Part shown: one piece after another, positions 54-47,563 of the stretch
Position numbering within the stretch: the first letter of the stretch is position 1
Layout of the letters: each line of letters starts with the position of its first letter
NCBI GenBank assembly: GCA_041662585.1
Contig: JBAZSG010000003.1
Span: 33,011-97,010 of the forward strand
Source of the DNA: Patescibacteria group bacterium
GTDB lineage: Bacteria; Patescibacteriota; Patescibacteriia; UBA1558; GWA2-36-10
Reading direction: 5' to 3'
DNA: 64,000 bases
Made by a program: the position numbers and the translations under genes
Notes under the pieces: model-generated
What the model was told of the DNA's origin: nothing
Seen by the model: only the letters and a program-made list of their open reading frames with translations
Database searches by the model: none

Positions 54-1022
54 ATGATAGATTTTGTTAATGTTAGTTACGGCCCTATAGCTGCTTATGG
101 TAATAAAGATTATTGGTATTCTTTGTTGAATATGCAGTATTTGACTGATAGTATAGCTAAAAATATACTTGAAGATGATAAATGGTTGGATAAGGTAAGG
201 AAAAAATCCTTGGATAACTTTGAAAAGTTTAAGGAAAATTTTAATAGACAACTGAAGTTAGTAGAATCAAAACCAATAGATTTTTTAATTTGGGTTATAA
301 AAAATTATCCTGATTATTTTGCTAGTCTAGGTTTATATAATGGACTTTGGCGTTATATGGAATATAATAATAACAGCCAGAGAAATATGGCTGATGGCAG
401 TACTGACAAAATAGCTGATGAAAGAAGTCAAGTGGCGATACTTTATCCTTTGGTAGAAAAGTATCTCAAGAGTGCTATTAAATCGATGCTTTCGAGTCTT
501 AATTTGCCGAAAATAGATTATTTGTTATTAACTAGAGAAGAATTGCAAGATGTTTTGGAAAATAATATGGTAAATAAAGAATTACAAATCCTGATAAAGA
601 AAAGAAGTAAAGGTTATGTATATTTATACAAAGATAATATAGAGACCATTATTTTTGATAAAGATGTTTTGAATAAAGTCAAAGATTATGCTATTCCTAA
701 AGTAAAAAATTCAGACATTGTTTACGGCATAGCAGCCTATGGGGGGCTAGTTAAGGGTAAAGTAGTTTTGGATTTAAAAAACTTTGCATCTTATAAAGAG
801 CCAATTTATATTACAGCCATGACTCATCCAGATGAGGTTCCTTGGCTTAAAAAATGTTTAGCTATAGTAACTGATGAAGGAGGAGTATTGTCTCATGTAG
901 CAGTGATTGCCAGGGAATTTAAAATACCTGCGCTTATGGGTACTAAAGTAGCTACCCAAATATTTAAAGATGGCGATATGGTGGAGGTGGATGCTAATAA
1001 AGGGATTGTGAAGAAAATATGA
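54..1022 (+). CDS. PEP-utilizing-enzyme mobile (phosphohistidine swivel) domain protein, paralog 1; 5' end uncertain (frame open to window start)
   Basis: C-terminus ...IVTDEGGVLSHVAVIAREFKIPALMGTKVATQIFKDGDMVEVDANKGIVKKI matches the PEP-utilizers swivel domain (GGxTSHAAIxAREL in PpsA/PPDK/EI). The N-terminal part is unique. The stop overlaps the next start (ATGA). Confidence 0.6.
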   Translation: MIDFVNVSYGPIAAYGNKDYWYSLLNMQYLTDSIAKNILEDDKWLDKVRKKSLDNFEKFKENFNRQLKLVESKPIDFLIWVIKNYPDYFASLGLYNGLWRYMEYNNNSQRNMADGSTDKIADERSQVAILYPLVEKYLKSAIKSMLSSLNLPKIDYLLLTREELQDVLENNMVNKELQILIKKRSKGYVYLYKDNIETIIFDKDVLNKVKDYAIPKVKNSDIVYGIAAYGGLVKGKVVLDLKNFASYKEPIYITAMTHPDEVPWLKKCLAIVTDEGGVLSHVAVIAREFKIPALMGTKVATQIFKDGDMVEVDANKGIVKKI

Positions 1023-2035
1023 ATTTAGATTTTGATAAATCATTAAATTATGAAAGACACCAACGTGATTATTCTATTGTAGTCACTACCCTTGTGTTTA
1101 GAGGTTTGTACAATCAAAATGCCAAGTTTTTTGGTGTAGCTCCTACGGCTTGTTATCTAATAATTAAAAACGATGTTTTATATCATTATATGTCTAAGTA
1201 TGATGGTAAAAGGCGCATGGAAAATTGGCTTCAAAACAATAATATCAAATCTTTTAAAGATCAAGAAAAAATATATTCTGAAAAATTAGAAAAATTTAAT
1301 AAATTTTATAATCAGCAGCCAGATGATTTATTTTTAGCTTTAAAATTGAGCCACGATTTTTTTGTAGATTTCACAGAAATAATTTTATTGGGTTATGAAC
1401 TGCCTTTGTATATGAAAGATATTGCACCTAAAGAAATTATAGATTTTGCTTTTGCTATTAGGCATAAATACGAAGATGTTCACAAAAGAAATGTTGATAT
1501 AACACTAAAGATTTTAAATAAATTGGAAGAAAAGTATAAAATCGAGAAAAATACATTGTCTTATCTAACTATAGATGAGCTAGAAAAATTTTTAAAAACA
1601 GCCGAGTTGCCAGATATTGAAGATAGAAGAAAATATGTATTAATAAAATATGATGGTGATTATTCTTTTTTCTACGACCAAAAAACTTGGAATATTTTAA
1701 ACCCAAAAATAGCTAAAGAATTTGTCCGTGGTAGGACAGCTTTTAAGGGAAAAGTACAAGGCATAGTAAAAGTAATAAATAAGATAAAAGAGGCTGACGA
1801 TTTGAAAGAAGGAGAGATTTTAATTACCAGTATGACAGACCCTCGCTATGTACCAGCTATGAAAAGAGCCGGAGCTATTGTCACTGATGAAGGAGGTATT
1901 ACTTGTCATGCGGCTATAGTTTCTCGTGAGTTAAAAATTCCGTGTGTTATCGGCACAAAAGTTGCTACGGAGATTTTTAAAAATGGCGATATGGTCGAAG
2001 TCGATGCTAATAGTGGTATAGTTAGAAAAATATGA
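1019..2035 (+). CDS. PEP-utilizing-enzyme mobile domain protein, paralog 2 (unique N-terminal domain)
   Basis: C-terminus ...AIVTDEGGITCHAAIVSRELKIPCVIGTKVATEIFKNGDMVEVDANSGIVRKI. There is a 4-nt overlap with both neighbouring genes. Confidence 0.65.
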   Translation: MNLDFDKSLNYERHQRDYSIVVTTLVFRGLYNQNAKFFGVAPTACYLIIKNDVLYHYMSKYDGKRRMENWLQNNNIKSFKDQEKIYSEKLEKFNKFYNQQPDDLFLALKLSHDFFVDFTEIILLGYELPLYMKDIAPKEIIDFAFAIRHKYEDVHKRNVDITLKILNKLEEKYKIEKNTLSYLTIDELEKFLKTAELPDIEDRRKYVLIKYDGDYSFFYDQKTWNILNPKIAKEFVRGRTAFKGKVQGIVKVINKIKEADDLKEGEILITSMTDPRYVPAMKRAGAIVTDEGGITCHAAIVSRELKIPCVIGTKVATEIFKNGDMVEVDANSGIVRKI

Positions 2036-3438
2036 ATATTATGAAAGTAGATAAATATCAAAGAGTATTTGAAAATCAAAATGTAAGGCCATATTATTCT
2101 ATACCTCACAATCAAGGTTTTGGCGAGCCATTAAAAGAATTGGTTAACTATGAATATGATAGAGTAATATACGTGATTTCAGAATCATACGGTAATAAAG
2201 CATATATTCACGAAGATGAAATAAACAAAGGAGCTAATTATTTTTCTAAAATTTGGAAAGATTCAAAAAAGACTAAGGAGATTTTAGCCGAGATAAGAAA
2301 ACGTTTTTTAAATGCCAAAAAACTAGAATTCAATTTATGGAAAATAGATATAATAAATATCAAGGAAGAAAAATTGGTAAGTAAATTAAATAAAATACAA
2401 GACATGTTACTTAATATTTTAAGTGCTCATGTCATTAGCCAGCCACCTCATATAAAAAGTTTGGAAAAGGAGTTAAATAATAGCCTTGAAAAAATAAAAG
2501 ATGTTGATCAATCATTATTAATTAGATCTTTTACACATTTTGAGGGTGTTTTGCCACACGCAGAGGAAGAAAAAGAAATAGAAAAATATAATAAATTATG
2601 GTCAAATATAGACAGCGATAAGAGAGAGACTATATTAGAAGAGTTGGTAAAAAAATATGGTTGGATAAATGCTGTAGAGGGAGATAAACCATATTCTAAA
2701 GAACATTATAAAAATAAAATAGAAACATATAAAAAGTCTTCTGATATAGAATTGTTAGATTTGAGTAAGTATTCTGTACCGCAAGCAGTAAAAATTGGAA
2801 AACTAATTGGTGAATTAGGCTTTTTACGTTTTTGGTCTAGATTTCATATGTTGGCTCTACATTATCAAATGAAACGTATAGTAAAAGAATTAGCCATCAA
2901 AAAAGAAAATAATTTAATAAATTTAATGACCGTAAAAGAAATTACTAATTATATAAATGGAGATGAAATAAATCTTAAAGAGATAGAAAAAAGAAAGAAA
3001 GGTTATGTGGTTTATTTAAAAAATGGAAAAAGTCATTTAGTGTCTGGCCAAGAAACTGATAAATATATTAAACTTACCAAGGAAGATGAATTGTCTCAAA
3101 AACAGATATCTGGATTTGTAGCATGCAGAGGTTTAATAAAAGCTAAAGCTAGAATTATTGATTTTAATTCAAAAGATTATAATAAAGAAGTATCTCAGTT
3201 TAAAAAAGGAGAAATTCTAGTCACAGGTATGACCCGTCCACAAATTGTACATCTATGTAATAAAGCCTCAGCTATTGTAACTGATGAAGGAGGTATAACA
3301 AGCCATGCAGCGGTAGTCAGTAGAGAATTAAATATTCCTTGTGTAATAGGTACTAAAGATGCCACTAAAATTTTTAAAACGGGAGATTTTTTAGAAGTAG
3401 ATGCCAATAAAGGAATAATAACAAAGATTATTAATTAA
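2032..3438 (+). CDS. PEP-utilizing-enzyme mobile domain protein, paralog 3 (unique 380-aa N-terminal region)
   Basis: C-terminus ...AIVTDEGGITSHAAVVSRELNIPCVIGTKDATKIFKTGDFLEVDANKGIITKI. Confidence 0.65.
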   Translation: MNIMKVDKYQRVFENQNVRPYYSIPHNQGFGEPLKELVNYEYDRVIYVISESYGNKAYIHEDEINKGANYFSKIWKDSKKTKEILAEIRKRFLNAKKLEFNLWKIDIINIKEEKLVSKLNKIQDMLLNILSAHVISQPPHIKSLEKELNNSLEKIKDVDQSLLIRSFTHFEGVLPHAEEEKEIEKYNKLWSNIDSDKRETILEELVKKYGWINAVEGDKPYSKEHYKNKIETYKKSSDIELLDLSKYSVPQAVKIGKLIGELGFLRFWSRFHMLALHYQMKRIVKELAIKKENNLINLMTVKEITNYINGDEINLKEIEKRKKGYVVYLKNGKSHLVSGQETDKYIKLTKEDELSQKQISGFVACRGLIKAKARIIDFNSKDYNKEVSQFKKGEILVTGMTRPQIVHLCNKASAIVTDEGGITSHAAVVSRELNIPCVIGTKDATKIFKTGDFLEVDANKGIITKIIN

Positions 3439-3446
3439 TATAATTT

Positions 3447-4373
3447 ATGAGTGAAAAAGAAATGGAAATTATGCCTCAAGGGGGCATAGAAAAACAAAGC
3501 GAAAAGGAAAGAGGTCTAAATAATAGAATATTGCTTAAAATAATTCGTCATGGTGAAAAAACCCCCGAAGGTGCTTTAACTGATTATGGTAGAGAAAAAA
3601 CTAGAGAGACAGTAGCAAATGACAAAAAAATAATAGAAGGCATACAAAAAGTAAAAGTTATGGGTAGTAATGCTGGTCCTAAAAATGAAGCTGGACAAGC
3701 TAGAGCTTTGGAGACAGCTGATATTTATGCAAACACACTGGTTAATGAGGAATATTCTGATCCAGAAATAATAAAGTATGAATCTCGTGCTAGATCAATA
3801 TTGGAAGTGGTTGGTCAAAATACACAACCGCCTTTTAATTGGGGTAAGGAGTATAAAGAAAATTTACCTGAAAATTTTTCAGAATTATCTGATGAGGATA
3901 AAGCAATTGCATCAGCTGAAGCCAATGAAAAAAATCTGACAAAATTAATGACTATGCCCGAAGCAGAAGATTATCGTCAGGAAATATCAGCTAGGTATGC
4001 TATGTTTATAAATACCTATATCAAAATGATAGACCGTATAGAAAATGATCAAAAGATTATGTATCCAGTAGGGGCTCATGGTGGACAAATAGAATTGTTT
4101 TTACAAAAATGTTTAAAACGTAAAACAGAAGATGGTGATGAAATTATTGGTTTTAAGGATAGTAAAGAACTAGGAGGTTCTTTTAATCCTAGTGAAGGAT
4201 TTTTTATTGATATCACCACTGATCAAAATGGAGAAAAGAAAATAGAATTCAATTTTGATGATCCAAAAAGGTTTGAGGGTGAAGAATTGTCACTTGATTT
4301 AGATACTATGTATGAACTTATAGATAAATATAAAGAAAAGTATGGTTCTTTTTATGATAAACAAAACGATTAA
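3447..4373 (+). CDS. histidine phosphatase superfamily (phosphoglycerate-mutase-like) protein
   Basis: N-terminal LLKIIRHGEKTPEGALTDYGREKTRE carries the RHG catalytic motif. A later VGAHGG matches the second-His motif of the PGM-like fold. Confidence 0.5.
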   Translation: MSEKEMEIMPQGGIEKQSEKERGLNNRILLKIIRHGEKTPEGALTDYGREKTRETVANDKKIIEGIQKVKVMGSNAGPKNEAGQARALETADIYANTLVNEEYSDPEIIKYESRARSILEVVGQNTQPPFNWGKEYKENLPENFSELSDEDKAIASAEANEKNLTKLMTMPEAEDYRQEISARYAMFINTYIKMIDRIENDQKIMYPVGAHGGQIELFLQKCLKRKTEDGDEIIGFKDSKELGGSFNPSEGFFIDITTDQNGEKKIEFNFDDPKRFEGEELSLDLDTMYELIDKYKEKYGSFYDKQND

Positions 4374-6063: not shown

Positions 6064-6833
6064 ATGAATTTTGAAAATGTTAATGCTAATCTAGAAAAAG
6101 AAAGTAAAGGTGAAAATGTAATTGTTCATTCTGTTTTTATTCGTCATGGAGAAAAATTTCATGATATAAATAATCCAGAAACAGAACTTACTCCTAAAGG
6201 GAGAGAGGCGAGTCGTGAAATTGGAAAAAATAGGCCGGAAGTTGATGCTATAAAAGGCTATAGTAGTGATACTCAAAGAACCCAAACTATGATCCAAATA
6301 ATGAATTTACCAAGAAATTGCAAGGGATAAAAGAAGAGTTGCTAGGAAAAGGATATGATGATTTATCAGAGAATCAAAAAGAAGCCAGGTTAGATGAATA
6401 CAACTCTGTTATTACTGATTGTTATTTAGCTTTGGGTGATCAGAGACCAGATCCAAATACTTATTCCCCAGTAGAAACAGCCGCTACTATGGCCAAGATA
6501 TTGGATAATAATATTAGGATGGCCGATAGATTAAAATCTAATTCAGAAGTTGATTTGGTCAATGCCACACATGATTTTAATATAGTAGCTTTCTTAAAGG
6601 AAGTCTTGGTAAGAAAAATAGATGATAAAAAAGTAGTTGGTTTTGATTCTGTTAAGGAAATAGGAGGAAGTATGGAATTTAATGGTGGTTTTGAAGTTTT
6701 AATAAAGACAGATAATGATGGGCACAAAACTCTAAAAATATTATTTAGAGGAGAAGAATACGAAATAGATGAGACAAGATTAACAGAATTAGTACAAATA
6801 GCCAAAGATTTAAAAAAGCAAGATGAAAAATAA
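6064..6833 (+). pseudogene. histidine phosphatase superfamily paralog, interrupted by a frameshift (ORFs 6064..6330 and 6318..6833)
   Basis: ORF1 has VFIRHGEKFHDINNPETELTPKGREASRE (RHG motif). ORF2 (KEIGGSMEFNGGFEVLIKTDNDGHKTLKILFRGEEYE, VNATHDFN) aligns to the C-terminal two-thirds of 3447..4373. The frame switch lies around 6300-6330. Confidence 0.5.
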
Positions 6834-6850
6834 TATAATAATTTATATAT

Positions 6851-7147
6851 ATGCCAAAATTAAATATAAAACCTTCAAGCAAGGCTAAGCTTAAGATTAA
6901 AAGGCCTATTAAAACAGAATCTAAGTTAGAAAAACTTAATAAAATATTAGATAGAGTACGTCCAGCACTAGAGCGAGATGGAGGCAATCTAGAGCTGATC
7001 AATTTTGATGAAAAAAATGGTTTAGTTGAAATTACATTTCAAGGTGCTTGCGCTCATTGTTCTTTGGCTGATGTTACATTAAAACATTTGATAGAATCTG
7101 AAATTAGAGCTCAAATGCCAGAAATAAAAGAAGTAAGATCTATATGA
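6851..7147 (+). CDS. NifU-like (Nfu-type) Fe-S cluster domain protein
   Basis: VRPALERDGGNLELINFDEKNGLVEITFQGACAHCSLADVTLKHLIESEI matches the NifU C-terminal / Nfu domain pattern (G-x-C-x-x-C ... TLK). The stop overlaps the start of the next gene. Confidence 0.6.
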   Translation: MPKLNIKPSSKAKLKIKRPIKTESKLEKLNKILDRVRPALERDGGNLELINFDEKNGLVEITFQGACAHCSLADVTLKHLIESEIRAQMPEIKEVRSI

Positions 7148-8502
7148 GTAGAAAGTATGATTTTATGTCAAAACCTTGGGTATATTCTATTTCTAGAAAT
7201 ATACATTTTTGGCACGATGAATTATCTATTAAATATAGTTATGCAGGTTGTAAGAAATTAAAATTACCTTCTTTTCATTATGCTCGGATTAATAATACAG
7301 GTCATGGAGATTTTTTTTATTTAGAAACAGGAGAGTATGGTAAGGATAAATTTAATAAAGCTTTAGAAGATAATTTTAAAGATAAAAAATATATTAATTT
7401 TTTAGAAAATTATTATATCAGTAATGGAGAAAAATTGGTTGAACATTCTAAAAAATTAAAATTAGATTATAAAGAATTTAAAGATTATTTTACAGAATAT
7501 GGAATAATGTGTCCTACTTTAGATGGTACTAACACAGGCAGTAAAATTATTACAGATTATTTATTAAATAAGTTATCTAGCTATCCTGATGCTACTGACA
7601 TTATTTCTTATTACTCTCAAATGCCTAAAAAAAGTCCCATGCAGAAGATGGATGAGGAGTTAGCTAAAGGCATTAAAAATAAAGTAGATAAAAAGAAATT
7701 AGCTAAAACATTATATAATAAGTATTGTTGGATACCAATTAGTTTTATTGGAGATCCTTGGGATTTAAAATATTTTGAAGATAAGATTAAAAAATATAGT
7801 CCAAATAAAGAACATAAATTATCTAAACCAAAAGTTCAAATAGCAGATAATTTAATGTATTACTTAAAATTATTAGGTAAAATAGCTTATTTAAATGAAT
7901 ATAGAAAATCTGTTTTTACTAGAGCCAATTATTATATTAGGCCGTTATTAGAAAAAATTGCTCAGGAGTATAATTTGGGTACTTGGAAAGAAATAAATCT
8001 TTTAGCTAGTAATGAGATATTAGATTTATTAGATGGTAAAGATGATTATCAAAAAAAATTGATAAAAGAGAGAAGAAAGGACTGGTTAATGTATGCGGTT
8101 GGTCGAGAGGGTATTGATTATGTCCATGGAAAGTTGGTAAAAGATTTTAGAAATAAATTTATGCCAAAAGCGAATGGTTTAAATTATGTTTCAGGTACAA
8201 TTGCCAATAAAGGTAAGGTCAGAGGTGTAGTAAAAATTATATATGAACCAAAAGATTTTAATAAGTTTAAGAAAGGGGATATATTAGTAGCTAAGATGAC
8301 CTCTATTGATTTTATACCAATAATGAAGCGTGCGGCAGCTTTTGTTACTAACGAAGGGGGTTTAGCATGTCATGCAGCTATAGTTTCTCGTGAATTAAAC
8401 ATCCCCTGTATAATAGGAGCTAAGATAGCTACCGAAGTTTTTAAAGACGGTGACAGAGTAGAAGTAGATGCTAATAGAGGTATAGTTAAGAAGATAAAAT
8501 AA
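7144..8502 (+). CDS. PEP-utilizing-enzyme mobile domain protein, paralog 4 (unique N-terminal domain)
   Basis: C-terminus ...AAFVTNEGGLACHAAIVSRELNIPCIIGAKIATEVFKDGDRVEVDANRGIVKKIK. Confidence 0.65.
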   Translation: MSRKYDFMSKPWVYSISRNIHFWHDELSIKYSYAGCKKLKLPSFHYARINNTGHGDFFYLETGEYGKDKFNKALEDNFKDKKYINFLENYYISNGEKLVEHSKKLKLDYKEFKDYFTEYGIMCPTLDGTNTGSKIITDYLLNKLSSYPDATDIISYYSQMPKKSPMQKMDEELAKGIKNKVDKKKLAKTLYNKYCWIPISFIGDPWDLKYFEDKIKKYSPNKEHKLSKPKVQIADNLMYYLKLLGKIAYLNEYRKSVFTRANYYIRPLLEKIAQEYNLGTWKEINLLASNEILDLLDGKDDYQKKLIKERRKDWLMYAVGREGIDYVHGKLVKDFRNKFMPKANGLNYVSGTIANKGKVRGVVKIIYEPKDFNKFKKGDILVAKMTSIDFIPIMKRAAAFVTNEGGLACHAAIVSRELNIPCIIGAKIATEVFKDGDRVEVDANRGIVKKIK

Positions 8503-8520
8503 TTTTAGACAAACGGAAAA

Positions 8521-8573
8521 GCGGCGACACGTTGTGTGTGTCGCCGCTTTGTTGTTAGTCCGTTGAGCGGACT
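8521..8573. terminator. pair of GC-rich hairpins (gcggcgacac..gtgtcgccgc and agtccgttgagcggact) acting as a bidirectional terminator
   Basis: Perfect inverted repeats, followed by a T-rich run on either strand. Confidence 0.55.
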
Positions 8574-9147
8574 ACTCTTCAATCCAGACGGCATCGATAC
8601 TGCCGTCGTCGTATAGGCGGAAGCGAATCGCTTCCATGGCATCGAGGCTGTGAGCATCGGTCATGCCGAGACACTTGGCCAGCATGGGGATGGTGGGATC
8701 GTGGAAGATCCCGACACCGTGCTGACCCGAATCCATCAGGTCGAACATCTGCTTGAGAGCATTGCGGGCTCCAATGTTGAAGTCAACGAGTACCTGCCGG
8801 TCGATGTTTACGAGCACGGCCTCCATATTGGAGAGGCCACCCTTGATGTCGGCCCGGACATGGTCGGTGATGATAGTGGCGAACAGTTCGCTACTACCGA
8901 GACCGTGGATCGGGTCATGCATCTTCACATGAGTGAAGGCCTGATTGGCTGTCATCATGGCGATGGCGGTTTCGCAGGTGCGGGCGAGAGGCCCCCAGAA
9001 GAGATGGTGAATATTCATGTTGCCTTCGTCGTAGCGCTCCGAGCCTATTTCGTAGGCGTAGGTGGCTCCGTCATAGGAGACATGATTGCCACCGGTATCT
9101 TTGTGCGTGTGGCGATACAAGTCTACGGTTTTGGTTATCTGGGCCAT
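8572..9147 (-). CDS. GC-rich histidine phosphatase superfamily-like protein (start placed at MAQITK..)
   Basis: Strong GC3 codon periodicity. The SD AGGGAGG lies 6 nt upstream of the ATG at 9147. DLYRHTHKD and later WGPLARTCETA resemble the RHG and S-x-L-x-RA-x-QTA motifs of the PGM/SixA fold. The ORF track's longer start at 9213 has no RBS. Confidence 0.45.
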   Translation of the reverse strand: MAQITKTVDLYRHTHKDTGGNHVSYDGATYAYEIGSERYDEGNMNIHHLFWGPLARTCETAIAMMTANQAFTHVKMHDPIHGLGSSELFATIITDHVRADIKGGLSNMEAVLVNIDRQVLVDFNIGARNALKQMFDLMDSGQHGVGIFHDPTIPMLAKCLGMTDAHSLDAMEAIRFRLYDDGSIDAVWIEE

Positions 9148-9222
9148 TTTGGGCCTCCCTGTTTTGGGTTTTGTATGGTACGCCCCTAAATATAGGGGAT
9201 TCTTGTATTTCAAGAATATATT

Positions 9223-9251
9223 AGTATAGCATATTTTTTATTTAATGTCAA
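9223..9251 (-). promoter_or_regulatory. sigma70-like promoter TTGACA-N17-(TGc)TATACT for 8572..9147
   Basis: The reverse complement reads ttgacattaaataaaaaatatgctatact, with an extended -10 TGn. Confidence 0.5.
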
Positions 9252-9292
9252 TATATATAATATATATTATATAGTAAAAAATACTATAAACA

Positions 9293-9321
9293 TTGACATT
9301 TATACTATATCATGCTAGACT
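9293..9321 (+). promoter_or_regulatory. sigma70-like promoter TTGACA-N17-(TGc)TAGACT for 9341..11149
   Basis: cattgacatttatactatatcatgctagact sits 20 nt before the ATG and is divergent from the minus-strand promoter. Confidence 0.45.
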
Positions 9322-9340
9322 GAGTAATTGATAAAAACAT

Positions 9341-11149
9341 ATGTTGGATAAAATTATAAATTCAAAAACTCGTCTAGCTATCTTGTCTTTATTTTTTAAA
9401 AATCAAGACAAAGAATTTTATGCTGGAGAGATTATCAAACAAAGCAATATGGATGCAGCTAATGTCCATAAAGAATTAAAAAATTTGGTAGCTGGTAAAT
9501 TTGTATTGCAAGAAGATAAATCAAGTAGAAAATATTTTTCTTTAAATAAAGATAATATTTTTTATAATGGTTTGGATAAGGTATTTAGTCAATATAAAGT
9601 ATCCATATCTGGAGATGTGTGGTTTTCTTTGGAATCAATGCCAAATTATTATCCTATGGTGGTGGCTTTTACTTGGAATGTAAAACGAGCCAATGATTTT
9701 TTACAAAGCCGTGGCTATAAAAATAAATTTACCAAACTACTCACTACCTATAACAATAATATCAATGATTTGCTTTTGATTAAAAAAGAATTTGACGACT
9801 TATCACAAGAAACTTTAGATAAGATTAATTCTGATCCAGATTGGGGGCATAGATATGTTGATGATTTATCACAAGCCATCCCTAAGTTGGTTAAAGCCAC
9901 TAAAGATTTGGAAAAAGTAAATTTGGGCAAATTATCCAATGAAGAATTATATAATTTATATCAGGAGTATTATGATGCTTATGGACGTCTTCATAGATTT
10001 CACTGGGTACAAACCATCGCTGATTTTGGTGACAATTTGTTTTCTAAATATCTAATGAATTATTTGCGTCATAAGGTCAAAGATAGCCAATATTCTTTGG
10101 GAGAAGTCTTTTCTACTTTGACAACTCCGATAGAAGACGGTCAAGCCGCTAAAGAGTATCAAAATTTATTAGGTATCTTAAAAAATATAATAGCTGATGA
10201 AAATCTAAAACAATATTTTAAAGATACCGAAACTCGTATTATTTACAGAGATTTAAAAAATGTTAATAAGGTTGTTGATGAACAAATTTCTGAACATACT
10301 GGGCTCTATGGTTATCTTGGTTATGGTATGGCCGGCCCTGGTTGGGGTAAAGACTATTTTATTGATATTTTAGGATCTTTGGTCAGACAGAATACCAATC
10401 CTAGTGAATTATTGGATAATTTACAAAAAGACAAAATAAACATTGAAGCCAAACAGCAGAAATTTATTAAACAACTAGAGGTAGATGAAAAACATCAGCA
10501 ATTGTTTGAAGTAGCTAGAGGTTTGGTTTTTACCAAAGGTACTCGCAAGGAATCTATGTTTTACAGTTATAGTGTTATAGAAAATTTGTTTAGAGAAATT
10601 GGTCGCCGTTATTATTTATCGGTCAATCAGGTGAGATATTTTTATCCCCATGAATTTGAAGATTTATTGCTTCACAATAAATTTAGTGCGGCTAAACTAA
10701 ATGAGCGTTATAAATTTAGTTTGCAATATTCAGTAGGTGATTATCATCAAGATAAATTATTAGAAGGTGAAGAAGCTAGAAAATTTTTAGAAAATTTTAA
10801 TATTGTCAAAGAGGAAATCGTTGATATTAAAGTAATGGAAGGAGATTGTGCTTCTCCTGGTCGAGCTCGTGGTAGTGCAAAAATTATCAATATTCCCAAA
10901 GATATGAGTAAAATGGAACAAGGCGATGTGCTTATATCTATCGCCACTACTCCGGATTTAGTACCAGCTATTAAAAAGGCTAGTGCTATTGTCACTGACG
11001 TCGGAGGTATTACTTGTCATGCTGCCATTGTTTCTCGTGAATTGGGCATTCCTTGTGTTATTGGTACTAAAATCGCTACCAAAGCCTTAAAAGATGGTGA
11101 TGTAGTAGATGTAGATGCTACGCATGGTAAAGTTACGATTGTCCGGTAG
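9341..11149 (+). CDS. winged-helix (ArsR/MarR-like) DNA-binding domain fused to a PEP-utilizing-enzyme mobile domain, paralog 5
   Basis: N-terminus KTRLAILSLFFKNQDKEFYAGEIIKQSNMDAANVHKELKNLVAGKFV is a wHTH pattern. C-terminus ...ASAIVTDVGGITCHAAIVSRELGIPCVIGTKIATKALKDGDVVDVDATHGKVTIVR. Confidence 0.6.
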   Translation: MLDKIINSKTRLAILSLFFKNQDKEFYAGEIIKQSNMDAANVHKELKNLVAGKFVLQEDKSSRKYFSLNKDNIFYNGLDKVFSQYKVSISGDVWFSLESMPNYYPMVVAFTWNVKRANDFLQSRGYKNKFTKLLTTYNNNINDLLLIKKEFDDLSQETLDKINSDPDWGHRYVDDLSQAIPKLVKATKDLEKVNLGKLSNEELYNLYQEYYDAYGRLHRFHWVQTIADFGDNLFSKYLMNYLRHKVKDSQYSLGEVFSTLTTPIEDGQAAKEYQNLLGILKNIIADENLKQYFKDTETRIIYRDLKNVNKVVDEQISEHTGLYGYLGYGMAGPGWGKDYFIDILGSLVRQNTNPSELLDNLQKDKINIEAKQQKFIKQLEVDEKHQQLFEVARGLVFTKGTRKESMFYSYSVIENLFREIGRRYYLSVNQVRYFYPHEFEDLLLHNKFSAAKLNERYKFSLQYSVGDYHQDKLLEGEEARKFLENFNIVKEEIVDIKVMEGDCASPGRARGSAKIINIPKDMSKMEQGDVLISIATTPDLVPAIKKASAIVTDVGGITCHAAIVSRELGIPCVIGTKIATKALKDGDVVDVDATHGKVTIVR

Positions 11150-11215: not shown

Positions 11216-12154
11216 ATGGAATTAGTCAGAGATTTTAAAAAAATAGATAAAAATCATGTCGCTTTGGCTGGAGGTAAGGGGGCATCTTTAGGAGAAATGA
11301 CCAAAGCGGGTATTCCTGTACCACCTGGTTTTGTGGTTTTATCTGGAGCTTTTGACAGATTTTTAGAAGAAACAGATTTGAATGTAGAAATAGAAGCTAT
11401 TTTAAAAACAGTTAAACATGAAGATGTTAATTCTGTGGAAAAGTCTTCTTTAAAAATAAGAGATTTAATTGCTGATGCTAAGATGCCAGAGGATATTGCC
11501 AAAGAAATTAAAGTATCTTTTAAAAAGCTTGATGCTAAATATGTAGCTGTGCGTTCTTCTGCTACAGCTGAGGATTCATCTATTGCATCTTGGGCCGGAG
11601 AATTGGAGTCATATCTTAATACCACAGATAAAGATTTGCTTGATAATGTCAAAAAATGTTGGTCATCACTTTTTACACCTCGGGCAATTTTTTATCGTTT
11701 TGAAAAAAAATTACATAACACTAAGGTATCTGTAGCTGTGGTAGTACAAGCAATGGTGCAGTCACAAGTGAGTGGTATTGTTTTTACTGTTCATCCAGTC
11801 ACAGAAGATCAGAAACAGATGATTATTGAAGCTGGTTGGGGATTGGGTGAAGCTATTGTTTCAGGTATGGTTACTCCCGATGCTTATGTTATAGATAAAA
11901 CAGATTTTTCTATTGTGGATATCAATATTTCAGATCAAGCCAAATACATTATCAAAACTAACAAAGGCAACAAATTTACAGATGTGCCTAGTGATAAACG
12001 TGAAGAGCAAAAATTGTCTGGTGCTCAGATTGTAGAGCTAGCCAAAATTTGTGTGGATATTGAAAAACACTACGGCTTTCCTTGTGATATAGAATGGGCT
12101 ATGGAAAAAAATAAATTTTATATTACCCAGTCCAGACCAATCACCACTTTATAA
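11216..12154 (+). CDS. free-standing PEP synthase / pyruvate phosphate dikinase N-terminal ATP-grasp (PPDK_N) domain protein
   Basis: VALAGGKGASLGEMTKAGIPVPPGFVVLSGAF matches the PpsA N-terminus (GGKGANLGEL..GxxVPxGF). Only 312 aa, with no swivel and no PEP-binding domain. Confidence 0.7.
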   Translation: MELVRDFKKIDKNHVALAGGKGASLGEMTKAGIPVPPGFVVLSGAFDRFLEETDLNVEIEAILKTVKHEDVNSVEKSSLKIRDLIADAKMPEDIAKEIKVSFKKLDAKYVAVRSSATAEDSSIASWAGELESYLNTTDKDLLDNVKKCWSSLFTPRAIFYRFEKKLHNTKVSVAVVVQAMVQSQVSGIVFTVHPVTEDQKQMIIEAGWGLGEAIVSGMVTPDAYVIDKTDFSIVDINISDQAKYIIKTNKGNKFTDVPSDKREEQKLSGAQIVELAKICVDIEKHYGFPCDIEWAMEKNKFYITQSRPITTL

Positions 12155-12221: not shown

Positions 12222-12719
12222 TTATACCTCGGTTTCGCCGAGTTGGTCGAGAATCGACCAGCCGATTTCACCGTTTTCGTCGATGGTGATCTCGATGACT
12301 GAGCCGCTTTTGGCGGCTTCTATACCCAGAGACTTGGCAAATGGTCTGCCGGTGCATAGCACAGCCCCATCGGGCAGAGACTCCAGGAAAGCAGGAATGG
12401 CGGGCGCCATATCAGCGATGCCGGTGTAGGCATCATAGGCACAGTGGTTGCCGTCGGCAAAGACGATGGTCGGCTGACCATCGATCATGTCGAGCGACGT
12501 GGCGTCACCCAGAAGCAGAGTTGAGCGGGTCATGGTCAGACCCAGTGTGGCAGCAACGTGCCGATGTCGGCGACCAGTGCCGCATATTACAGCCGCAGGA
12601 TTTTCAGGGAGGAGTCCCTTGAGGGACTCAATCTGATTTACTCCTTTGAGAGTCATCAGGGGGTCAGCCCCATCGCTCTTGTCGCCGTGCAATACGGCGA
12701 AAAATTGATTGACTTTCAC
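12222..12719 (-). CDS. GC-rich SixA-like (phosphohistidine phosphatase-type) histidine phosphatase family protein, GTG start
   Basis: GC3-rich codons. FFAVLHGDKSDGADPLMTLKG ... VICGTGRRHRHVAATLGL has the same layout as SixA (IMRHGDA...RPLT.NG ... VLVSPFLRAEQT), but with L in place of the catalytic R. Confidence 0.4.
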   Translation of the reverse strand: MKVNQFFAVLHGDKSDGADPLMTLKGVNQIESLKGLLPENPAAVICGTGRRHRHVAATLGLTMTRSTLLLGDATSLDMIDGQPTIVFADGNHCAYDAYTGIADMAPAIPAFLESLPDGAVLCTGRPFAKSLGIEAAKSGSVIEITIDENGEIGWSILDQLGETEV

Positions 12720-12766
12720 TTTTTAGCCTTTCTTTTGGGTTGTAGGGTACTTGATTTTAATATAAT

Positions 12767-12795
12767 ATTATAGCATATTTTTATACTTTTGTCAA
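12767..12795 (-). promoter_or_regulatory. sigma70-like promoter TTGACA-N17-(TGc)TATAAT for 12222..12719
   Basis: The reverse complement reads ttgacaaaagtataaaaatatgctataat. Confidence 0.5.
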
Positions 12796-12845
12796 TGATA
12801 GTATTTTTTTAAAAATAATTATTTTGAGGTGGTGTTTTATTGCTA

Positions 12846-12874
12846 TTGACAATAATCACTATATATGCTAATAT
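12846..12874 (+). promoter_or_regulatory. consensus sigma70 promoter TTGACA-N17-TAATAT
   Basis: ttgacaataatcactatatatgctaatat. It drives the GC-rich transcript that ends at the 13286-13319 terminator. Confidence 0.5.
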
Positions 12875-13027
12875 ACAAAATACTTTGATTTTGTAGTGTC
12901 TATCGCTTGTATAAGCAAGGACACTCAAGTCAGGGTAGTATCATTACAATCAAAAAAGGTTGCGACCAAAAGTTGGTTGCAACCAAACAAACACTGAAGT
13001 TGGCCAAGCAGGCCAAGGAGGTTCTTG

Positions 13028-13120
13028 ATGCGTACCTACAAGAAGCATCACTCGCCCCCGTCCGTGGTTTTTACGAATATTATCACCAAAAAGGCGAAGA
13101 AGACCGCCACGACGAGCTGA
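13028..13120 (+). CDS. small ORF MRTYKKHHSPPSVVFTNIITKKAKKTATTS with a perfect SD
   Basis: AAGGAGG lies 6 nt upstream of the ATG. The track's alternative 12907..13167 ORF starts with TTG inside the hairpins and lacks an RBS. Confidence 0.3.
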   Translation: MRTYKKHHSPPSVVFTNIITKKAKKTATTS

Positions 13121-13285
13121 CCGAGATCCGGCCGGCGGTCGTGATTCTGATGAGTATCAGAAAATAAGCTCAATCAGACAACGACCTGCCGAACGAACGA
13201 ACATCAAAAAACTGAATTCGCCGGCGCAAGCCGTACAAAAATGACGGCGATTTGCCGACGATTCAGCAGTGCTCTTCTGTGTATG

Positions 13286-13319
13286 CCGCCCCACCTAGCT
13301 AGGTCGGGGCGGTTTTTTA
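13286..13319 (+). terminator. strong rho-independent terminator (ccgccccacctag/ctaggtcggggcgg + T7)
   Basis: A 12-13-bp GC stem followed directly by TTTTTTATT. Confidence 0.7.
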
Positions 13320-13394
13320 TTGACATTTTTTCTTAAAATTGTTCAAATATTGGGTAGATTTTTTATAAATAATGTGTTAAAATAAGTACATAAT

Positions 13395-13754
13395 ATGTCT
13401 ATAATTCGCACCAGCAAAGTATTATATAAAGATAAATTAGCTTTTTGGCTAATTAATTTTTCTTTTTTGTCTATATTAGCCACTTGGTTTTTATTTTTTA
13501 TTAAAAGAATCAAATATGATCCTTTGGCTGTACTACATTACAATATTTACTCGGGGATTGATATTTTGGGTGCTTGGTACATACTTTTTATTATTCCGGT
13601 TTTAGTTTTAATTGTATCATTTTTAGATTTCTTTTTAGCGGTATTACTTTGGACTAAAGTAAGGGTCATGAGTTATTTTTTATTGCTTACTATTTTACTT
13701 ATAAATGTTTTTATGTTTTTATTTTTATATAATATATTAAATTACAATTTATAA
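13395..13754 (+). CDS. small integral membrane protein (3 predicted TM segments), unknown function
   Basis: Highly hydrophobic 119-aa ORF immediately upstream of mraY. Confidence 0.4.
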   Translation: MSIIRTSKVLYKDKLAFWLINFSFLSILATWFLFFIKRIKYDPLAVLHYNIYSGIDILGAWYILFIIPVLVLIVSFLDFFLAVLLWTKVRVMSYFLLLTILLINVFMFLFLYNILNYNL

Positions 13755-40734: not shown

Positions 40735-41668
40735 CATGCTCCCTAATTTTAAAGAATTTTTATTATACTTAGAAAAAAAGGATTATTCTATTCAGACTAT
40801 CCATAGTTATGAAAGAGATCTAAATACTTTTGAAAATTTTTTAGAGGAAGATATTAAAATAGGTTTTGATCAATTGAATAAAAGACACATTATCAAATTT
40901 CAAACTTATCTCTCCTCTGCTTCCAGACAGACTGCTGCTCATGAGCAGGGCGAAAAAAAATTATCTAGCCAAAGTATCAATCGTATGCTTTCAAGTTTAC
41001 GGTCTTATATTAAATTTTTAATAGATGTGAATTATAAATCTCCAATTGATTCTGATTCTATCAAACTACTAAAAATTGAAAAGGAGTATGGCCAAGTTCC
41101 AGAAATGCCTGACTTGATAAGACTAATAGAATGTCCTACTAAGTTTGAAACTGATCTCACTATCAAGCTTCGCAATCGTGCCATGCTCGAGACATTATTT
41201 TCTACTGGTATGCGTATTTCCGAATTACTTTCTTTGAAGCGTGAACAACTAGACAATACTGGACGTATTTATGTCATGGGTAAAGGCAAAAAACAACGCT
41301 TTGTTTATCTTACTCCTCGAGCTATCAAACATATCAAAGATTATTTACTCACTCGTCATGATCAAGCTCCTTATCTTTTTATACCGTATCGTGGCTTAAA
41401 TAATGCTGATAAAAATAAAAAAATCTCTACCAATTATTTGCAAGCAAAAATAAAAAAATATAGAGAGCTTCTCTCTATCAATATCCCTATTTCAGCTCAC
41501 TCTATAAGACATTCTTTTGCTACTTATTTGGCAGAAAATGGTGCCAATCCAGCCGCTATTCAAATATTACTTGGTCATGAGTCTTTAGATACTACCACTC
41601 GTTATGTACATACTAGTGATCGTTATGCTGAAAAAATGCATACAGATTTTTATCCTCTTAAAAAATAA
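40724..41668 (+). CDS. tyrosine site-specific recombinase (XerC/XerD family)
   Basis: HSIRHSFATYLAENGANPAAIQILLGHESLDTTTRYVHT. Confidence 0.8.
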   Translation: MKNNMLPNFKEFLLYLEKKDYSIQTIHSYERDLNTFENFLEEDIKIGFDQLNKRHIIKFQTYLSSASRQTAAHEQGEKKLSSQSINRMLSSLRSYIKFLIDVNYKSPIDSDSIKLLKIEKEYGQVPEMPDLIRLIECPTKFETDLTIKLRNRAMLETLFSTGMRISELLSLKREQLDNTGRIYVMGKGKKQRFVYLTPRAIKHIKDYLLTRHDQAPYLFIPYRGLNNADKNKKISTNYLQAKIKKYRELLSINIPISAHSIRHSFATYLAENGANPAAIQILLGHESLDTTTRYVHTSDRYAEKMHTDFYPLKK

Positions 41669-41938
41669 ACTATAAAATTTATTATTTTTTGTAAAAAAAA
41701 CGGACATCCTCTCAGGTGCGAAAAGGATGTCCATCAGAGCTGATTTGTTCCAGTATTTTGAAAAGCTAGTATCAGCCGCAACCTATATTAAGATGGTTGT
41801 GCTCGTTGTATGGGTAGGTTTTTTTGTTGTGGAGAGTTCCTACACCAAAGAGCTCTTAAATAGGTTACTAACTATTCAAAGAACAAATCAGATTAAGCTG
41901 ATATTAGCAAACTAAAAATATATTGTCAAATAAAAAAA

Positions 41939-41953
41939 GCCCCTAAACGGGGC
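41939..41953. terminator. bidirectional terminator hairpin gcccctaaacggggc flanked by A-run and T-run
   Basis: Inverted repeat with aaaaaaa upstream and taatttt downstream. Confidence 0.6.
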
Positions 41954-41969
41954 TAATTTTAGTTTAATT

Positions 41970-43223
41970 TTATGGTAAGTAGTTTAATGGATCTACAGGG
42001 ACTCCATTGAGACGAATTTCTAAGTGAAGATGAGGTCCGGTAGTCAGTGGTCCAGCTCCTCTGGTTCCTGGCATACCACCACTATAGCCTATAATATCAC
42101 CTTTGGATACAAATTGATCAGCACTAACATTTATTTTATTGACGTGTCCATAGACAGTAGAAAGACCGTCGGCATGAACTATCATAATATAGCTATAACC
42201 AGTAGATCCTCCATCTTTGGCTTTGGCCACATAGCCAGAGTCAGCTGCTCTAAGAGCAGTGCCTTGTGGTGTAGCAATGTCTATCGCTGGATGTTCAAAA
42301 ATATAACGGTATGGATAATCAGCATCGTGGAAATAAGAGGTAATCCTTTGAGAAGCCACTGGCCACATCAGACCATCACTAGAGATGTTTTCTAATTCCA
42401 ATTGTCGGTTTACTTTTTCACGAGCTACTTTTTCTAGATAAACAATGTCATTATTTATATCTTCTTGTTCTTGTTTGGCTTGGCGTAAAAGTTCTTGATA
42501 TTTAGATTCTTGTCCTTGGGTAGCTGCCATCAAAGAAAATTTGACTGTTTTTTGTCCATCTAGGTTATCTTTTTTACTGTCTAGAATATTATTTAAAGTA
42601 TTAAGCTCGTTTATTTTATTTTCTATAGAAGATTTATCAGTATCAAGAGCCAATTTTATTTCATATAATTGTTCTACTCCGTCAAATAAATTATCTCTCA
42701 TATCTTCTAGACGACTAAGATCGGCCAAGAAGTCACTAAAATTATTATTTAGTATTACTATTTCTAATAAACTATTTTGTTGCTGTTGTCTATGTAGTGA
42801 TCTGATAATACCAGCCAGTATTTCTTTTTGCTCGCTTATTTCTTTTTCTTTAGCATCAATTTTTAATTGAGTATTTTCTATTTGAAGATCCAGCTCTTCA
42901 ATTTCTAGCTGGGTTGATTCTATTTCTAGATTTATTTTGGCTATACTATCATTGAGAGTACTTACTTGGTTGTTTAGATTGCCAATTTCTCTTTGTTTGG
43001 CAGATATATTTTTTTGATAGATATCAATTTGACGTTTTAATTCTTGAATTTCAGAGCGTTTTTCATTGATATCTTGGTTTATTTGCCATGTTTCTACGGT
43101 ATTTAGGTTGTCTAGTTTGTATTCAACAGCCTTAGTATTATAAGGGAAAAAAATAAAGCCAAATATGGCTATCGACAATATACTAGCTAATATTTTGATA
43201 GTTTTTATTTTTATTTGTAGCAT
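41970..43223 (-). CDS. M23-family metallopeptidase with a long N-terminal coiled coil (EnvC-like)
   Basis: Signal/TM N-terminus, ~250 aa of heptad-rich sequence, and a C-terminal LytM/M23 domain (HxxxD ... GPHLHLE). Confidence 0.75.
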   Translation of the reverse strand: MLQIKIKTIKILASILSIAIFGFIFFPYNTKAVEYKLDNLNTVETWQINQDINEKRSEIQELKRQIDIYQKNISAKQREIGNLNNQVSTLNDSIAKINLEIESTQLEIEELDLQIENTQLKIDAKEKEISEQKEILAGIIRSLHRQQQQNSLLEIVILNNNFSDFLADLSRLEDMRDNLFDGVEQLYEIKLALDTDKSSIENKINELNTLNNILDSKKDNLDGQKTVKFSLMAATQGQESKYQELLRQAKQEQEDINNDIVYLEKVAREKVNRQLELENISSDGLMWPVASQRITSYFHDADYPYRYIFEHPAIDIATPQGTALRAADSGYVAKAKDGGSTGYSYIMIVHADGLSTVYGHVNKINVSADQFVSKGDIIGYSGGMPGTRGAGPLTTGPHLHLEIRLNGVPVDPLNYLP

Positions 43224-43277
43224 GGTTTTTTCAATATAGCTATATTATAGCATATTTATAGCTTCTTGGCAAGAAAA

Positions 43278-44705: not shown

Positions 44706-45432
44706 GTTTTTGTTGTTTTTTAGCTTTTTTATATACCAAGTAAGGAAAGATAAATATAGCTCTGTTGATGCGTAACAGTCTTTTTGGCTGTAATATTAGC
44801 CTCCAAAGCCATTCTAAACCAAGACTTTGTAAAAGCTTGGGAGCTCTTTTTATTTTACCAGACATAAAGTCAAAAGTCCCGCCTATGCCAGCAGCTATTT
44901 TGACATTTGGTATTTGCTGTATATTTTCTGAAATCCAAATATCTTGAGTCGGCGCTCCAAGACCAACTAGTATTATATCTGGAGCAAACATTTTTCCTTT
45001 GGCTAGAGCTGTATGCTCATCTGATACTTGAAAGTCTAGAGCTGGATATTTATTTTTTATCGCTACAAAAAAATTGTCAGTCTTGGTCATTCCTTTACTA
45101 TATAAACAAAACATTATTTTTAAATTTTTGTTTATAGCCAAATCAATTAATATTTCACTTAATCTGACTCCGGTTATTCTATCATCCAATGATATGCTAT
45201 GACCCAAATATTGTAGGGCTTTTATAATACCAGCGCCATCAATAAGAGAGATACTGGCTTTATTTATTATTTCCAAAAACTTTTTATTGTTTTGACTTTG
45301 CACTATAAATTCTGGATTGACCGTAGCTATTTGATGTTGTTTTTGAGAATCCAAAAATTCAAACAATTTATTTTTTAGTTTGTGTTCTGCTAGTGTGTTT
45401 AATTTTACGCCCAAAAGATTGTATTCGTTCAT
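44686..45432 (-). CDS. WecB/TagA/CpsF-family glycosyltransferase (GT26)
   Basis: Family-typical layout with C-terminal GIGGTFDFMSGKIKRAP. Confidence 0.7.
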   Translation of the reverse strand: MNEYNLLGVKLNTLAEHKLKNKLFEFLDSQKQHQIATVNPEFIVQSQNNKKFLEIINKASISLIDGAGIIKALQYLGHSISLDDRITGVRLSEILIDLAINKNLKIMFCLYSKGMTKTDNFFVAIKNKYPALDFQVSDEHTALAKGKMFAPDIILVGLGAPTQDIWISENIQQIPNVKIAAGIGGTFDFMSGKIKRAPKLLQSLGLEWLWRLILQPKRLLRINRAIFIFPYLVYKKAKKQQKHGKSEN

Positions 45433-45980: not shown

Positions 45981-46080
45981 AGCTTAATTTTATCTTAAAT
46001 ATACCCAAAAATCAATGGTAAAAATATAAAAATTTTGCTATAATAGATAAACTAAAATAAAAAATAAACTTTAAATTTAT

Positions 46081-47559: not shown

Positions 47560-47563
47560 TTAT

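Follow-up and report, generated by a model that had tools for sequence, protein, structure and literature searches.

A GC-rich phosphatase-like gene inherited vertically beside a split dikinase operon in AT-rich Patescibacteria

Background

Compositional islands and the 'morons' of phages have a simple architecture: one gene, transcribed from its own sigma-70 promoter up to an intrinsic terminator, that deviates in GC content from its surroundings and runs opposite to the resident genes. Here we analyze a gene with the same architecture, which we call island 1, in a stretch of 64,000 nucleotides (hereafter the window) from an AT-rich Patescibacteria genome (assembly GCA_041662585.1, contig JBAZSG010000003.1, positions 33,011 to 97,010 of the forward strand). 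A previous sequence-only reading of the window had described island 1 as a compositionally foreign coding cassette wired to host expression signals. Unlike compositional islands and morons, however, island 1 does not lie in a prophage, it is found at the same locus in related genera, and its composition is not decaying.

The predicted product of island 1 is best compared with branch 1 of the histidine phosphatases (PF00300), with which it has in common the fold, the R-H motif, the second arginine and the second histidine. It differs from this branch in having RH[S/T] in place of RHG and in belonging to a family that is fixed beside a split dikinase operon. The dikinases of the phosphoenolpyruvate (PEP) synthase, pyruvate phosphate dikinase (PPDK) and rifampicin phosphotransferase type combine a PPDK_N ATP-grasp domain with a swivelling histidine domain, and both are present in the operon next to island 1 (the partner operon). 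Unlike in those dikinases, the partner enzyme is split over two polypeptides, and the swivel protein has an N-terminal winged helix-turn-helix (HTH) domain. Among phosphatases with a small single-domain fold, SixA acts on histidine phosphotransfer domains. The island 1 gene likewise adjoins a phospho-histidine carrier, the PEP-utilizer swivel domain, which makes SixA a plausible working analogy; unlike SixA-type enzymes, the island 1 protein has no sequence-level membership in that group, and its target could equally be a small-molecule or protein product of the dikinase. Our literature searches turned up no description of GC-rich genes that are vertically inherited and compositionally stationary in AT-rich genomes of the Candidate Phyla Radiation (CPR), nor of a dikinase/phosphatase module of this kind.

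Composition and inheritance of the island 1 gene

The mean GC content of the whole window is 0.322, compared with 0.562 in the 500-nt segment 8501-9000, and positions 8510-9200 form an island of 55% GC inside a Patescibacteria genome of 32% GC. The deviation is sharp: in 100-nt steps the GC content is 0.48-0.60 over 8500-9199 and then 0.14-0.18 at 9200-9349, immediately upstream of the island gene. Both profiles bear out the roughly 700 bp of about 55% GC that had been described previously. The sole credible open reading frame (ORF) of the island is located on the minus strand (8572-9147, with the ATG at 9145-9147) and encodes 191 amino acids followed by a TAG stop, one codon fewer than the 192 residues first counted. 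The gene has a GC content of 0.56, with values of 0.58, 0.37 and 0.72 at codon positions 1, 2 and 3 (GC1, GC2 and GC3) and of 0.78 at 4-fold degenerate sites (GC4), while the GC3 of the native flanking genes is 0.16-0.26. Among the 61 non-overlapping ORFs of at least 90 amino acids in the window, the distribution of GC3 is bimodal, with 58 native ORFs at 0.15-0.34, three island ORFs (island 1 and the two further GC-rich genes described below as islands 2 and 3) at 0.58-0.72, and none between; the strong third-position bias noted earlier is therefore real. The amino acid composition of the product is atypical as well (GARP 0.24 and FYMINK 0.28, as compared with about 0.18 and 0.36 for native proteins). 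A hypothetical protein of the Patescibacteria metagenome-assembled genome GCA_041667165.1 has the identical sequence. As had also been noted, the gene runs opposite to its neighbours: all ORFs from 54 to 41668 are on the plus strand except islands 1 and 2. Since the GC skew switches between about 41 and 52 kb together with the orientation of the genes, the genes of islands 1-3 are the only head-on genes in the window.

Orthologues of the gene occupy the corresponding position in related genomes. In contigs of Komeilibacteria (from ENA, JGI, NCBI and Logan), an orthologue with 58% identity has the same position and again runs against its neighbours, within the gene order MurD, MraY, a 119-aa gene, the island 2 orthologue, PPDK_N, the 602-aa PEP-utilizer, the island 1 orthologue, NifU and His_Phos_1. 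Across Komeilibacteria and their relatives, the cassette sits between the 602-aa PEP-utilizer gene and either NifU or a convergent PEP-utilizer gene, and in five more lineages orthologues at 40-59% identity adjoin PEP-utilizer, PPDK_N or p119 genes. Altogether, eight AT-rich CPR lineages have the orthologue at the same locus or in the same dikinase neighbourhood. The flanking proteins are 73-91% identical between genomes, as opposed to 56-59% for the island 1 protein. The synonymous divergence (dS) of the island 1 gene is the same as that of its flanks (1.0-1.3 versus 0.8-2.0), indicating that the gene has co-diverged with them, and its pairwise identities rank in the same order as those of PPDK_N. 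The ratio of non-synonymous to synonymous divergence (dN/dS) is 0.26-0.31, versus 0.05-0.16 for the flanks, which marks a real coding sequence that evolves fast and under weaker constraint than its neighbours. The leader and the terminator align base for base across orthologues, and the whole unit of promoter, leader, coding sequence, stop hairpin and terminator is orthologous. More than 20 independent contigs, drawn from four sources, show the same junction architecture, which excludes an assembly chimera. Island 1 is thus an old, vertically inherited phosphatase-like gene of related CPR lineages. It probably represents a true transcription unit of one gene, placed on the lagging strand of a Komeilibacteria-like Patescibacteria chromosome, and a long-standing partner of the split dikinase.

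The GC-rich composition has persisted along with the gene. In all eight AT-rich lineages the gene has a GC content of 0.55-0.64, a GC3 of 0.71-0.90 and a GC4 of 0.70-0.92, against a GC4 of 0.22-0.46 in the flanks; the GC4 values are 0.81-0.92 in the lineages L009, L020 and L006 and 0.70-0.78 in the Komeilibacteria-like clade. A neutral clock (F81 model on native 4-fold sites), which assumes that the island 1 gene mutates like its neighbours, leaves each lineage with 35-51% of its initial compositional deviation since the splits and sets a neutral ceiling of GC4 0.57-0.66, even if the 4-fold sites were 100% GC when the lineages separated. This ceiling is exceeded in seven of the eight lineages, in L009 by about 6 standard errors. 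Polarised changes at 4-fold sites from GC to AT and from AT to GC stand at 1.6-3.5:1 in the island 1 gene and at 11:11 in island 2, where neutral decay predicts about 8:1; the counts are small, and we use them qualitatively only, since parsimony polarisation is biased toward common-to-rare changes in native controls. In relatives with genomes of 42-45% GC, the GC3 of the gene is only 0.54-0.62, which indicates that the AT-rich lineages hold the gene above its likely ancestral GC3. We conclude that the 55% GC of island 1 is a gene-specific composition kept near equilibrium against the AT bias of the genome, and not a fresh foreign signature.

Transcription signals of island 1

The gene is preceded on the minus strand by a sigma-70-type promoter, TTGACA-N14-TGC-TATACT (9223-9251), with an 11/12 match, a 17-nt spacer and an extended -10 element (TGC). 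This is the promoter that the sequence-only reading had proposed, and the orthologues retain both its -35 and its -10 element. Its 12-mer AAATATGCTATA recurs exactly at 12769-12780, in the promoter of island 2, and at 43246-43257, in a promoter (43244-43272) that drives a native-composition gene resembling an M23-type peptidase (labelled by sequence reading and not by a hidden Markov model search). The earlier observation that the promoter core recurs at a native gene therefore holds, and the island 1 promoter is of the genome's own type. Taken alone, the 12-mer is not significant (5 sites at no more than one mismatch versus 2.2 expected), whereas the complete extended promoter pattern is (4 sites versus 0.11 expected). 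A 38-nt promoter segment of island 1 is 79% identical to the island 2 promoter. Of the ten promoters in the window that score at least 11/12, three drive islands 1-3, and these include both perfect 12/12 sites.

Downstream of the promoter, the leader (about 37% GC, counted by hand from the sequence) contains two stem-loops on the minus strand, AUUCUUG-AAAUA-CAAGAAU (9199-9217), which starts a few nucleotides from the predicted transcription start, and CCCCUA-UAUU-UAGGGG (9183-9198). Both also form when the full transcript is folded, and 5 of their 15 predicted pairs have double-sided compensatory changes among five orthologues. They are followed by the leader motif GTACCATACAA (9171-9181, minus strand), which is common to the leaders of islands 2 and 3. 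The corresponding pattern GTACC-N-TA-(N)-CAA, defined post hoc, occurs three times on both strands of the 64 kb, where 0.2 occurrences are expected: at 9171-9181 (-), 12740-12750 (-) and 54027-54038 (+), each time in the sense-strand 5' leader of one GC-rich gene. Variants of it are retained in the leaders of the orthologues, and judging from these occurrences the motif may be a shared regulatory site. The Shine-Dalgarno sequence GGGAGG (9154-9159, minus strand) lies 6 nt 5' of the ATG and reads GGAGG or GGGAGG in the orthologues.

At the 3' end, the two GC-rich hairpins described previously at 8521-8547 and 8557-8573 were found in exactly those places. The latter, with the core AGTCCG/CGGACT, extends over the stop codon to give UAGUCC-GCUCAAC-GGACUA (8556-8574, minus strand), a hairpin with a 6-7-bp stem and the TAG stop in its 5' arm. 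Compensatory changes preserve it in all orthologues, as with GUAGCC/GGCUAC in L009, and every one of these genes ends in TAG; the element could be a 3' stabiliser or a termination-context element. The other hairpin belongs to an intrinsic terminator (8510-8550) with a perfect 10-bp G+C stem, GCGGCGACAC/GTGTCGCCGC (8521-8530/8538-8547), which is extendable to 13 bp (8518-8550; 15 pairs predicted, 8 of them G-C). A G+C stem-loop followed by a U run 3' of the stop codon, as expected of a rho-independent terminator, is thus present at 8518-8550, and because T runs flank the stem on both strands the terminator is bidirectional. It ends both the island 1 gene on the minus strand and the convergent PEP-utilizer gene (7144-8502) on the plus strand. 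The stem covaries in the orthologues, where it appears as GCGGCGACAC, GCGGCACCAC and GCGGCGGTCCC.

A divergent member of the histidine phosphatase superfamily

An HMMER search of 1.84 billion representative sequences identified 186 clusters of relatives of about 190 amino acids. In 34 relatives the residues R12, H13, K16, R56, T57 and H149 are at least 90% conserved. The R-H motif of the window protein is R12-H13 in YRHTHK, which reads RHSxK in most relatives, the glycine of RHG being replaced by threonine or serine. The second arginine is R56 in GPLARTCET (a PLxRTxET segment), the second histidine is H149 in FHDPT, and the proton donor is D78 or E59, assigned by position only. The AlphaFold2 model of the protein has a pLDDT of 81 and a pTM of 0.81. 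Its best Foldseek matches are PGAM, CobC, PhoE and PGAM5 (E-value 3.5e-6, TM-scores 0.57-0.62), and the 50 best matches listed among PDB structures (TM-scores 0.5-0.62) all belong to the histidine phosphatase superfamily, with 10-17% sequence identity to the solved structures. PF00300 is matched by five of the 34 relatives (best E-value 3.8e-8), and one relative is named histidine phosphatase by NCBI. For the window protein itself, neither Pfam nor NCBIfam gave a match at E-values up to 0.01, PADLOC gave none either, and a sequence search of the PDB with the family profile returned noise only; since no model matches it at curated thresholds, we file the protein as a divergent offshoot of the superfamily. 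We conclude that island 1 adds a new, divergent protein to a known superfamily: according to the structure model, it is a PGAM-like protein with an intact catalytic R-H...R...H core and a predicted enzyme activity.

The C-terminal half of the family profile is also matched by 18 separate stretches of a 2516-aa protein from a JGI metagenome (P0095), which from its sequence appears to be a tandem-repeat derivative of the island 1 domain.

The split dikinase operon and the proposed role of island 1

The partner operon is transcribed on the plus strand, divergently from island 1, from the promoter TTGACA-17-TAGACT with a TG extension (9293-9321). Its first gene (9341-11149, plus strand) encodes a 602-aa protein with an N-terminal winged HTH domain, a central part that is RPH/PigC-like, and a C-terminal PEP-utilizer swivelling phospho-histidine domain. 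The second gene (11216-12154, plus strand) encodes PPDK_N, the ATP-grasp nucleotide-binding half (E-value 1.3e-100). Both genes are of native GC content. By sequence, the two proteins resemble a split dikinase of the PEP-synthase/rifampicin-phosphotransferase type, although the PEP/pyruvate-binding TIM-barrel domain was not detected in either of them. The phosphatase-like gene is transcribed divergently from a partner of the 602-aa type in relatives down to 28% identity, and in the most distant ones (28-31% identity) it is divergent from an operon of HTH-PEP-utilizer, HD and PPDK_N genes.

We propose that the dikinase would use ATP to phosphorylate the swivel histidine and then pass the phosphate to a substrate, and that the island 1 protein would remove phosphate from the dikinase product or from the phospho-histidine itself. 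On the basis of the conserved neighbourhood and the fold, the island 1 protein is probably the phosphatase arm of a kinase/phosphatase pair formed with the adjacent dikinase.

The surrounding region shows an unusual local concentration of phospho-histidine chemistry. Besides the 602-aa partner, there are four more PEP-utilizer paralogues in the window (54-3438 and 7144-8502, plus strand); the 452-aa paralogue at 7144-8502 carries the swivel domain, and the other three are assigned from their syntenic L001 counterparts, which have this domain. A second, native histidine-phosphatase-like gene, with an RHGEK motif, is located at 3447-4373. Furthermore, a native His_Phos_1-like gene beside NifU is represented by two overlapping ORFs (6064-6330 and 6318-6833, plus strand) with about 25 residues missing at the join, while in Komeilibacteria (L001) the same gene is a single ORF of 280 amino acids. 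The broken copy may reflect pseudogenization, a true gene split or a sequencing error.

Origin and maintenance of the GC-rich composition

The candidate causes of the GC-richness are selection on mRNA structure, GC-biased gene conversion and an old replacement, of which we prefer the first with modest confidence. On balance, we find it probable that island 1 is an old, vertically inherited partner of the dikinase whose GC content has been maintained, most likely by selection for a structured, long-lived mRNA. The rise in GC extends from the ribosome-binding site to the terminator, which implies that its cause acts on the transcribed coding region. The most likely candidate for this cause would be selection for a G+C-rich, highly structured, long-lived mRNA, and the transcript would be one built for strong and durable expression, with a top-scoring promoter, 5'-terminal stem-loops, a strong Shine-Dalgarno sequence, a stop hairpin and a strong terminator. 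Compared with synonymous shuffles, the coding sequence is over-folded in the window gene (z = -4.3), in its orthologues (-1.2 to -3.3) and in islands 2 and 3 (-3.2 to -4.7), the values for six native genes being -0.8 to -2.4; this excess gives suggestive support to selection on the mRNA. Against dinucleotide shuffles, z is -7.4 for the full transcript and -0.9 for the S4 gene; the terminal hairpins account for much of the difference.

Several points weigh against this interpretation. The folding excess of two of the orthologues overlaps the native controls. GC1 and GC2 are raised too, which fits a nucleotide-level force or a foreign origin equally well as mRNA selection, and per-site selection of the strength needed to hold about 100 synonymous sites is not what one would usually expect of a genome where ribosomal-protein genes lack codon bias. 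The GC4 of L001 is 0.69-0.70 (from about 50-80 sites), within sampling error of the 0.66 ceiling, and the L001 clade may therefore have undergone partial decay from a very GC-rich ancestor. The mutational premise of the neutral clock, the parsimony bias and the missing Pfam and NCBIfam matches, all given above, count on the same side, as does the fact that the functional link to the dikinase is drawn from the conserved neighbourhood alone.

Among the alternatives, a cassette acquired horizontally from a GC-rich donor, or in a weaker form a replacement from a GC-richer CPR lineage that took place before the present lineages split and is still ameliorating slowly, seems unlikely to us, even though part of the evidence is readable in this way. 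The gene is atypical at all three codon positions and in amino acid composition, the different GC4 levels of L009, L020 and L006 and of the Komeilibacteria-like clade could be stages of decay, L001 is within error of the neutral ceiling, GC-rich units have been gained or lost nearby (the 12882-13322 unit is found in the window only, and an extra gene in L018 and L019 only; see below), and island 3 is an orphan. However, a recent transfer is excluded by the syntenic orthologues, by the equality of dS with the flanks and by the conservation of the terminator and of the AT-rich leader, and for either form the seven lineages above the neutral ceiling and the low GC3 in relatives with 42-45% GC genomes are difficult to accommodate. 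The search for the taxonomic affinity of the product, which the sequence-only reading had suggested as a check, revealed no GC-rich donor-like homologue: named relatives are all from the CPR apart from two that are probably mis-binned, with most of the 186 clusters carrying no taxonomic label, and the phage, plasmid and viral (IMG/VR) collections contained no relatives. A locus search with an 11-sequence alignment found only two true loci among GTDB representatives; matches in Actinomyces and Pauljensenia were rejected, as they cover 35-43 residues only and reflect generic similarity to the FHDP motif. A tRNA scan detected no tRNA gene in the window, no repeats bound island 1, and the annotated flanking genes (NifU, PEP-utilizer, PPDK_N) have no mobility function. 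A diversity-generating retroelement and a transposon were rejected in the absence of repeats. An integron gene cassette was rejected as well, given that the gene has its own promoter, that its hairpins are a terminator and a stop-codon stem and not repeated attC sites, and that there is no array; an integrase is not among the annotated neighbours of island 1. Of the usual marks of recent acquisition, only the deviant composition was thus observed, while a patchy distribution, mobility signatures, a matching donor and amelioration were not (amelioration being borderline for L001). With island 1 at the same locus, a dS equal to that of its flanks and a composition that is not decaying, the inference of recent acquisition fails. 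What stands of the foreign cassette originally described is the atypical composition, the self-contained transcription unit and the promoter of the genome's own type; the imported origin is not supported, in view of the syntenic orthologues, the dS, the GC4 above the neutral ceiling and the lack of a donor.

GC-biased gene conversion, in which strains would exchange alleles of a recombination-prone gene by way of its conserved promoter/leader and terminator flanks and no selection would act on the mRNA, would account for the general weak-to-strong nature of the shift, which is not codon-specific and keeps the native pyrimidine preference at 4-fold sites (C:G of 3.8 versus 2.7), for the rise in GC1 and GC2, and for a coding sequence that evolves 2-5 times faster than its neighbours at non-synonymous sites between a leader and a terminator that are nearly identical between genomes. 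Yet the GC edge at the ribosome-binding site is sharp, and any conversion tract would include the leader, which is itself AT-rich; the equality of dS with the flanks and the identity order of PPDK_N argue against frequent allele exchange; and we know of no bacterial precedent for a conversion-driven gain of 0.5 in GC3 in single genes. We therefore consider this mechanism improbable. Translational selection, in which very high expression favours optimal codons ending in G or C, is a still weaker candidate, with little chance of being correct. It agrees with the near-consensus promoter and the strong Shine-Dalgarno sequence, and the C3-rich usage resembles that of the adjacent YebC gene in relatives of 42-45% GC, but the genes for S13, S11, S4, RpoA, L17, L13 and S9 (labelled by sequence reading) have a GC3 of 0.15-0.23 and a C3 of 0.05-0.16, so that ordinary codon adaptation does not explain the bias, and the shift extends to the amino acid composition through GC1 and GC2. 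A bias specific to C-ending codons was rejected, as the C:G and T:A ratios at 4-fold sites hardly differ in native genes from those of the island; the shift is therefore one from AT to GC in general. Least credible of all, and close to negligible, is an artefact (an assembly chimera or a contaminating read pile-up) or a structured RNA in place of a protein gene. The sharp composition edges and the very stable fold of the transcript, much of it due to the terminal hairpins, could be cited in its favour; against it stand the recurrence of the same architecture in the independent contigs, the dN/dS, the regular GC pattern over codon positions, the 186 clusters, the conserved catalytic residues and the confident fold prediction.

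Returning to selection on the mRNA, a bolder extension would be that islands 1-3, and perhaps the candidate RNA at 12882-13322, form a co-regulated, 'hard-wired' gene class that selection has kept GC-rich for tens of millions of years in favour of stable or nuclease-resistant mRNAs. The marks of such a class would be the best promoters, the GTACC-N-TA-(N)-CAA leader motif, head-on orientation, strong terminators and an over-structured, G+C-rich coding region. We regard this extension as speculative and rather doubtful. If true, it would point to mRNAs that survive, for example, dormancy or AU-specific RNases and toxins, and gene-specific composition would be a regulatory trait and not a historical scar.

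Island 1 is a counter-example to the practice of inferring recent horizontal transfer from atypical GC content, being as old as its neighbours and near compositional equilibrium. It points to a force, whether mRNA or DNA selection or biased conversion, that holds single genes 25-30 GC points above an AT-drifting, reduced genome, and such a force does not fit easily with the usual view that selection is weak in ultra-small, symbiont-like genomes. The analysis also defines a conserved CPR module in which a split, PEP-synthase-like dikinase with a DNA-binding domain is flanked by proteins with a histidine phosphatase fold, and it supplies CPR expression signals with covariation support (a promoter, 5' stabiliser-like hairpins, a Shine-Dalgarno sequence and terminators).

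Other GC-rich units in the window

Island 2 (12222-12719, minus strand; 165 amino acids, GC 0.56) is likewise head-on and closes the far end of the partner operon. It has a perfect 12/12 promoter (12767-12795), and GC-rich syntenic orthologues are present in L001 and L018 at 69-77% identity, with a dN/dS of 0.17. A low-confidence single-sequence structure model, for which Foldseek gave matches to CobC, SixA and PGAM5, suggests a probable histidine-phosphatase fold for the product, with RHG replaced by LHG. As the catalytic arginine is replaced in LHG, island 2 may encode a pseudo-phosphatase. An hhalign comparison of the island 1 and island 2 families was not significant, and we therefore do not claim paralogy of the two from sequence.

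Island 3 (54108-54974, plus strand; 288 amino acids, GC 0.52) also has a perfect 12/12 promoter (53905-53933) and runs opposite to both of its neighbours. The protein has a signal-peptide-like N-terminus and a coiled-coil-like body, and apart from its own record no homologue was found among 5.8 billion proteins. Unlike islands 1 and 2, island 3 could be young or could truly have been acquired in recent times. It adjoins an acidic, repeat-containing ORF of 2049 amino acids and native composition (55092-61241, minus strand).

Between island 2 and the 119-aa gene lies a GC-elevated transcription unit of 440 nt (12882-13322, plus strand), with a promoter at 12846-12874 and a terminator at 13287-13320. 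Its minimum free energy is -164.5, versus -117.7 +/- 5.5 for dinucleotide shuffles (z = -8.5), and an Rfam search of 12740-13400 at E-values up to 1 gave nothing credible, as did one of the whole window at the gathering threshold. The unit is absent from the orthologous loci of L001 and L018, which share the terminator alone. It is a candidate lineage-specific structured RNA; the alternative is a 30-codon ORF with AAGGAGG-N7-ATG at 13029. In L018 (6729-7214) and L019 (3351-3896), an extra gene of GC 0.46-0.47, encoding 161-181 amino acids, is located immediately 3' of the phosphatase-like gene. The L018 copy has no Pfam match, and the gene is absent from the window and from L001. Its presence in L018 and L019 only shows that GC-rich units are gained or lost at this locus.

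Additional features of the window

The cumulative GC skew peaks, and the gene orientation flips from plus to minus, at about 41000-52000, which suggests a replication terminus. The ORF at 40736-41668 (plus strand) resembles a Xer-like tyrosine recombinase by its sequence motifs. Apart from the three head-on GC-rich genes, which stand out, the gene-strand bias in the window is nearly total. Finally, three sigma-70 promoters with 11/12 matches lie on both strands at 48688-48934, in an AT-rich gap of 560 bp without any ORF of at least 90 amino acids; this gap may hold a small RNA or a small gene.

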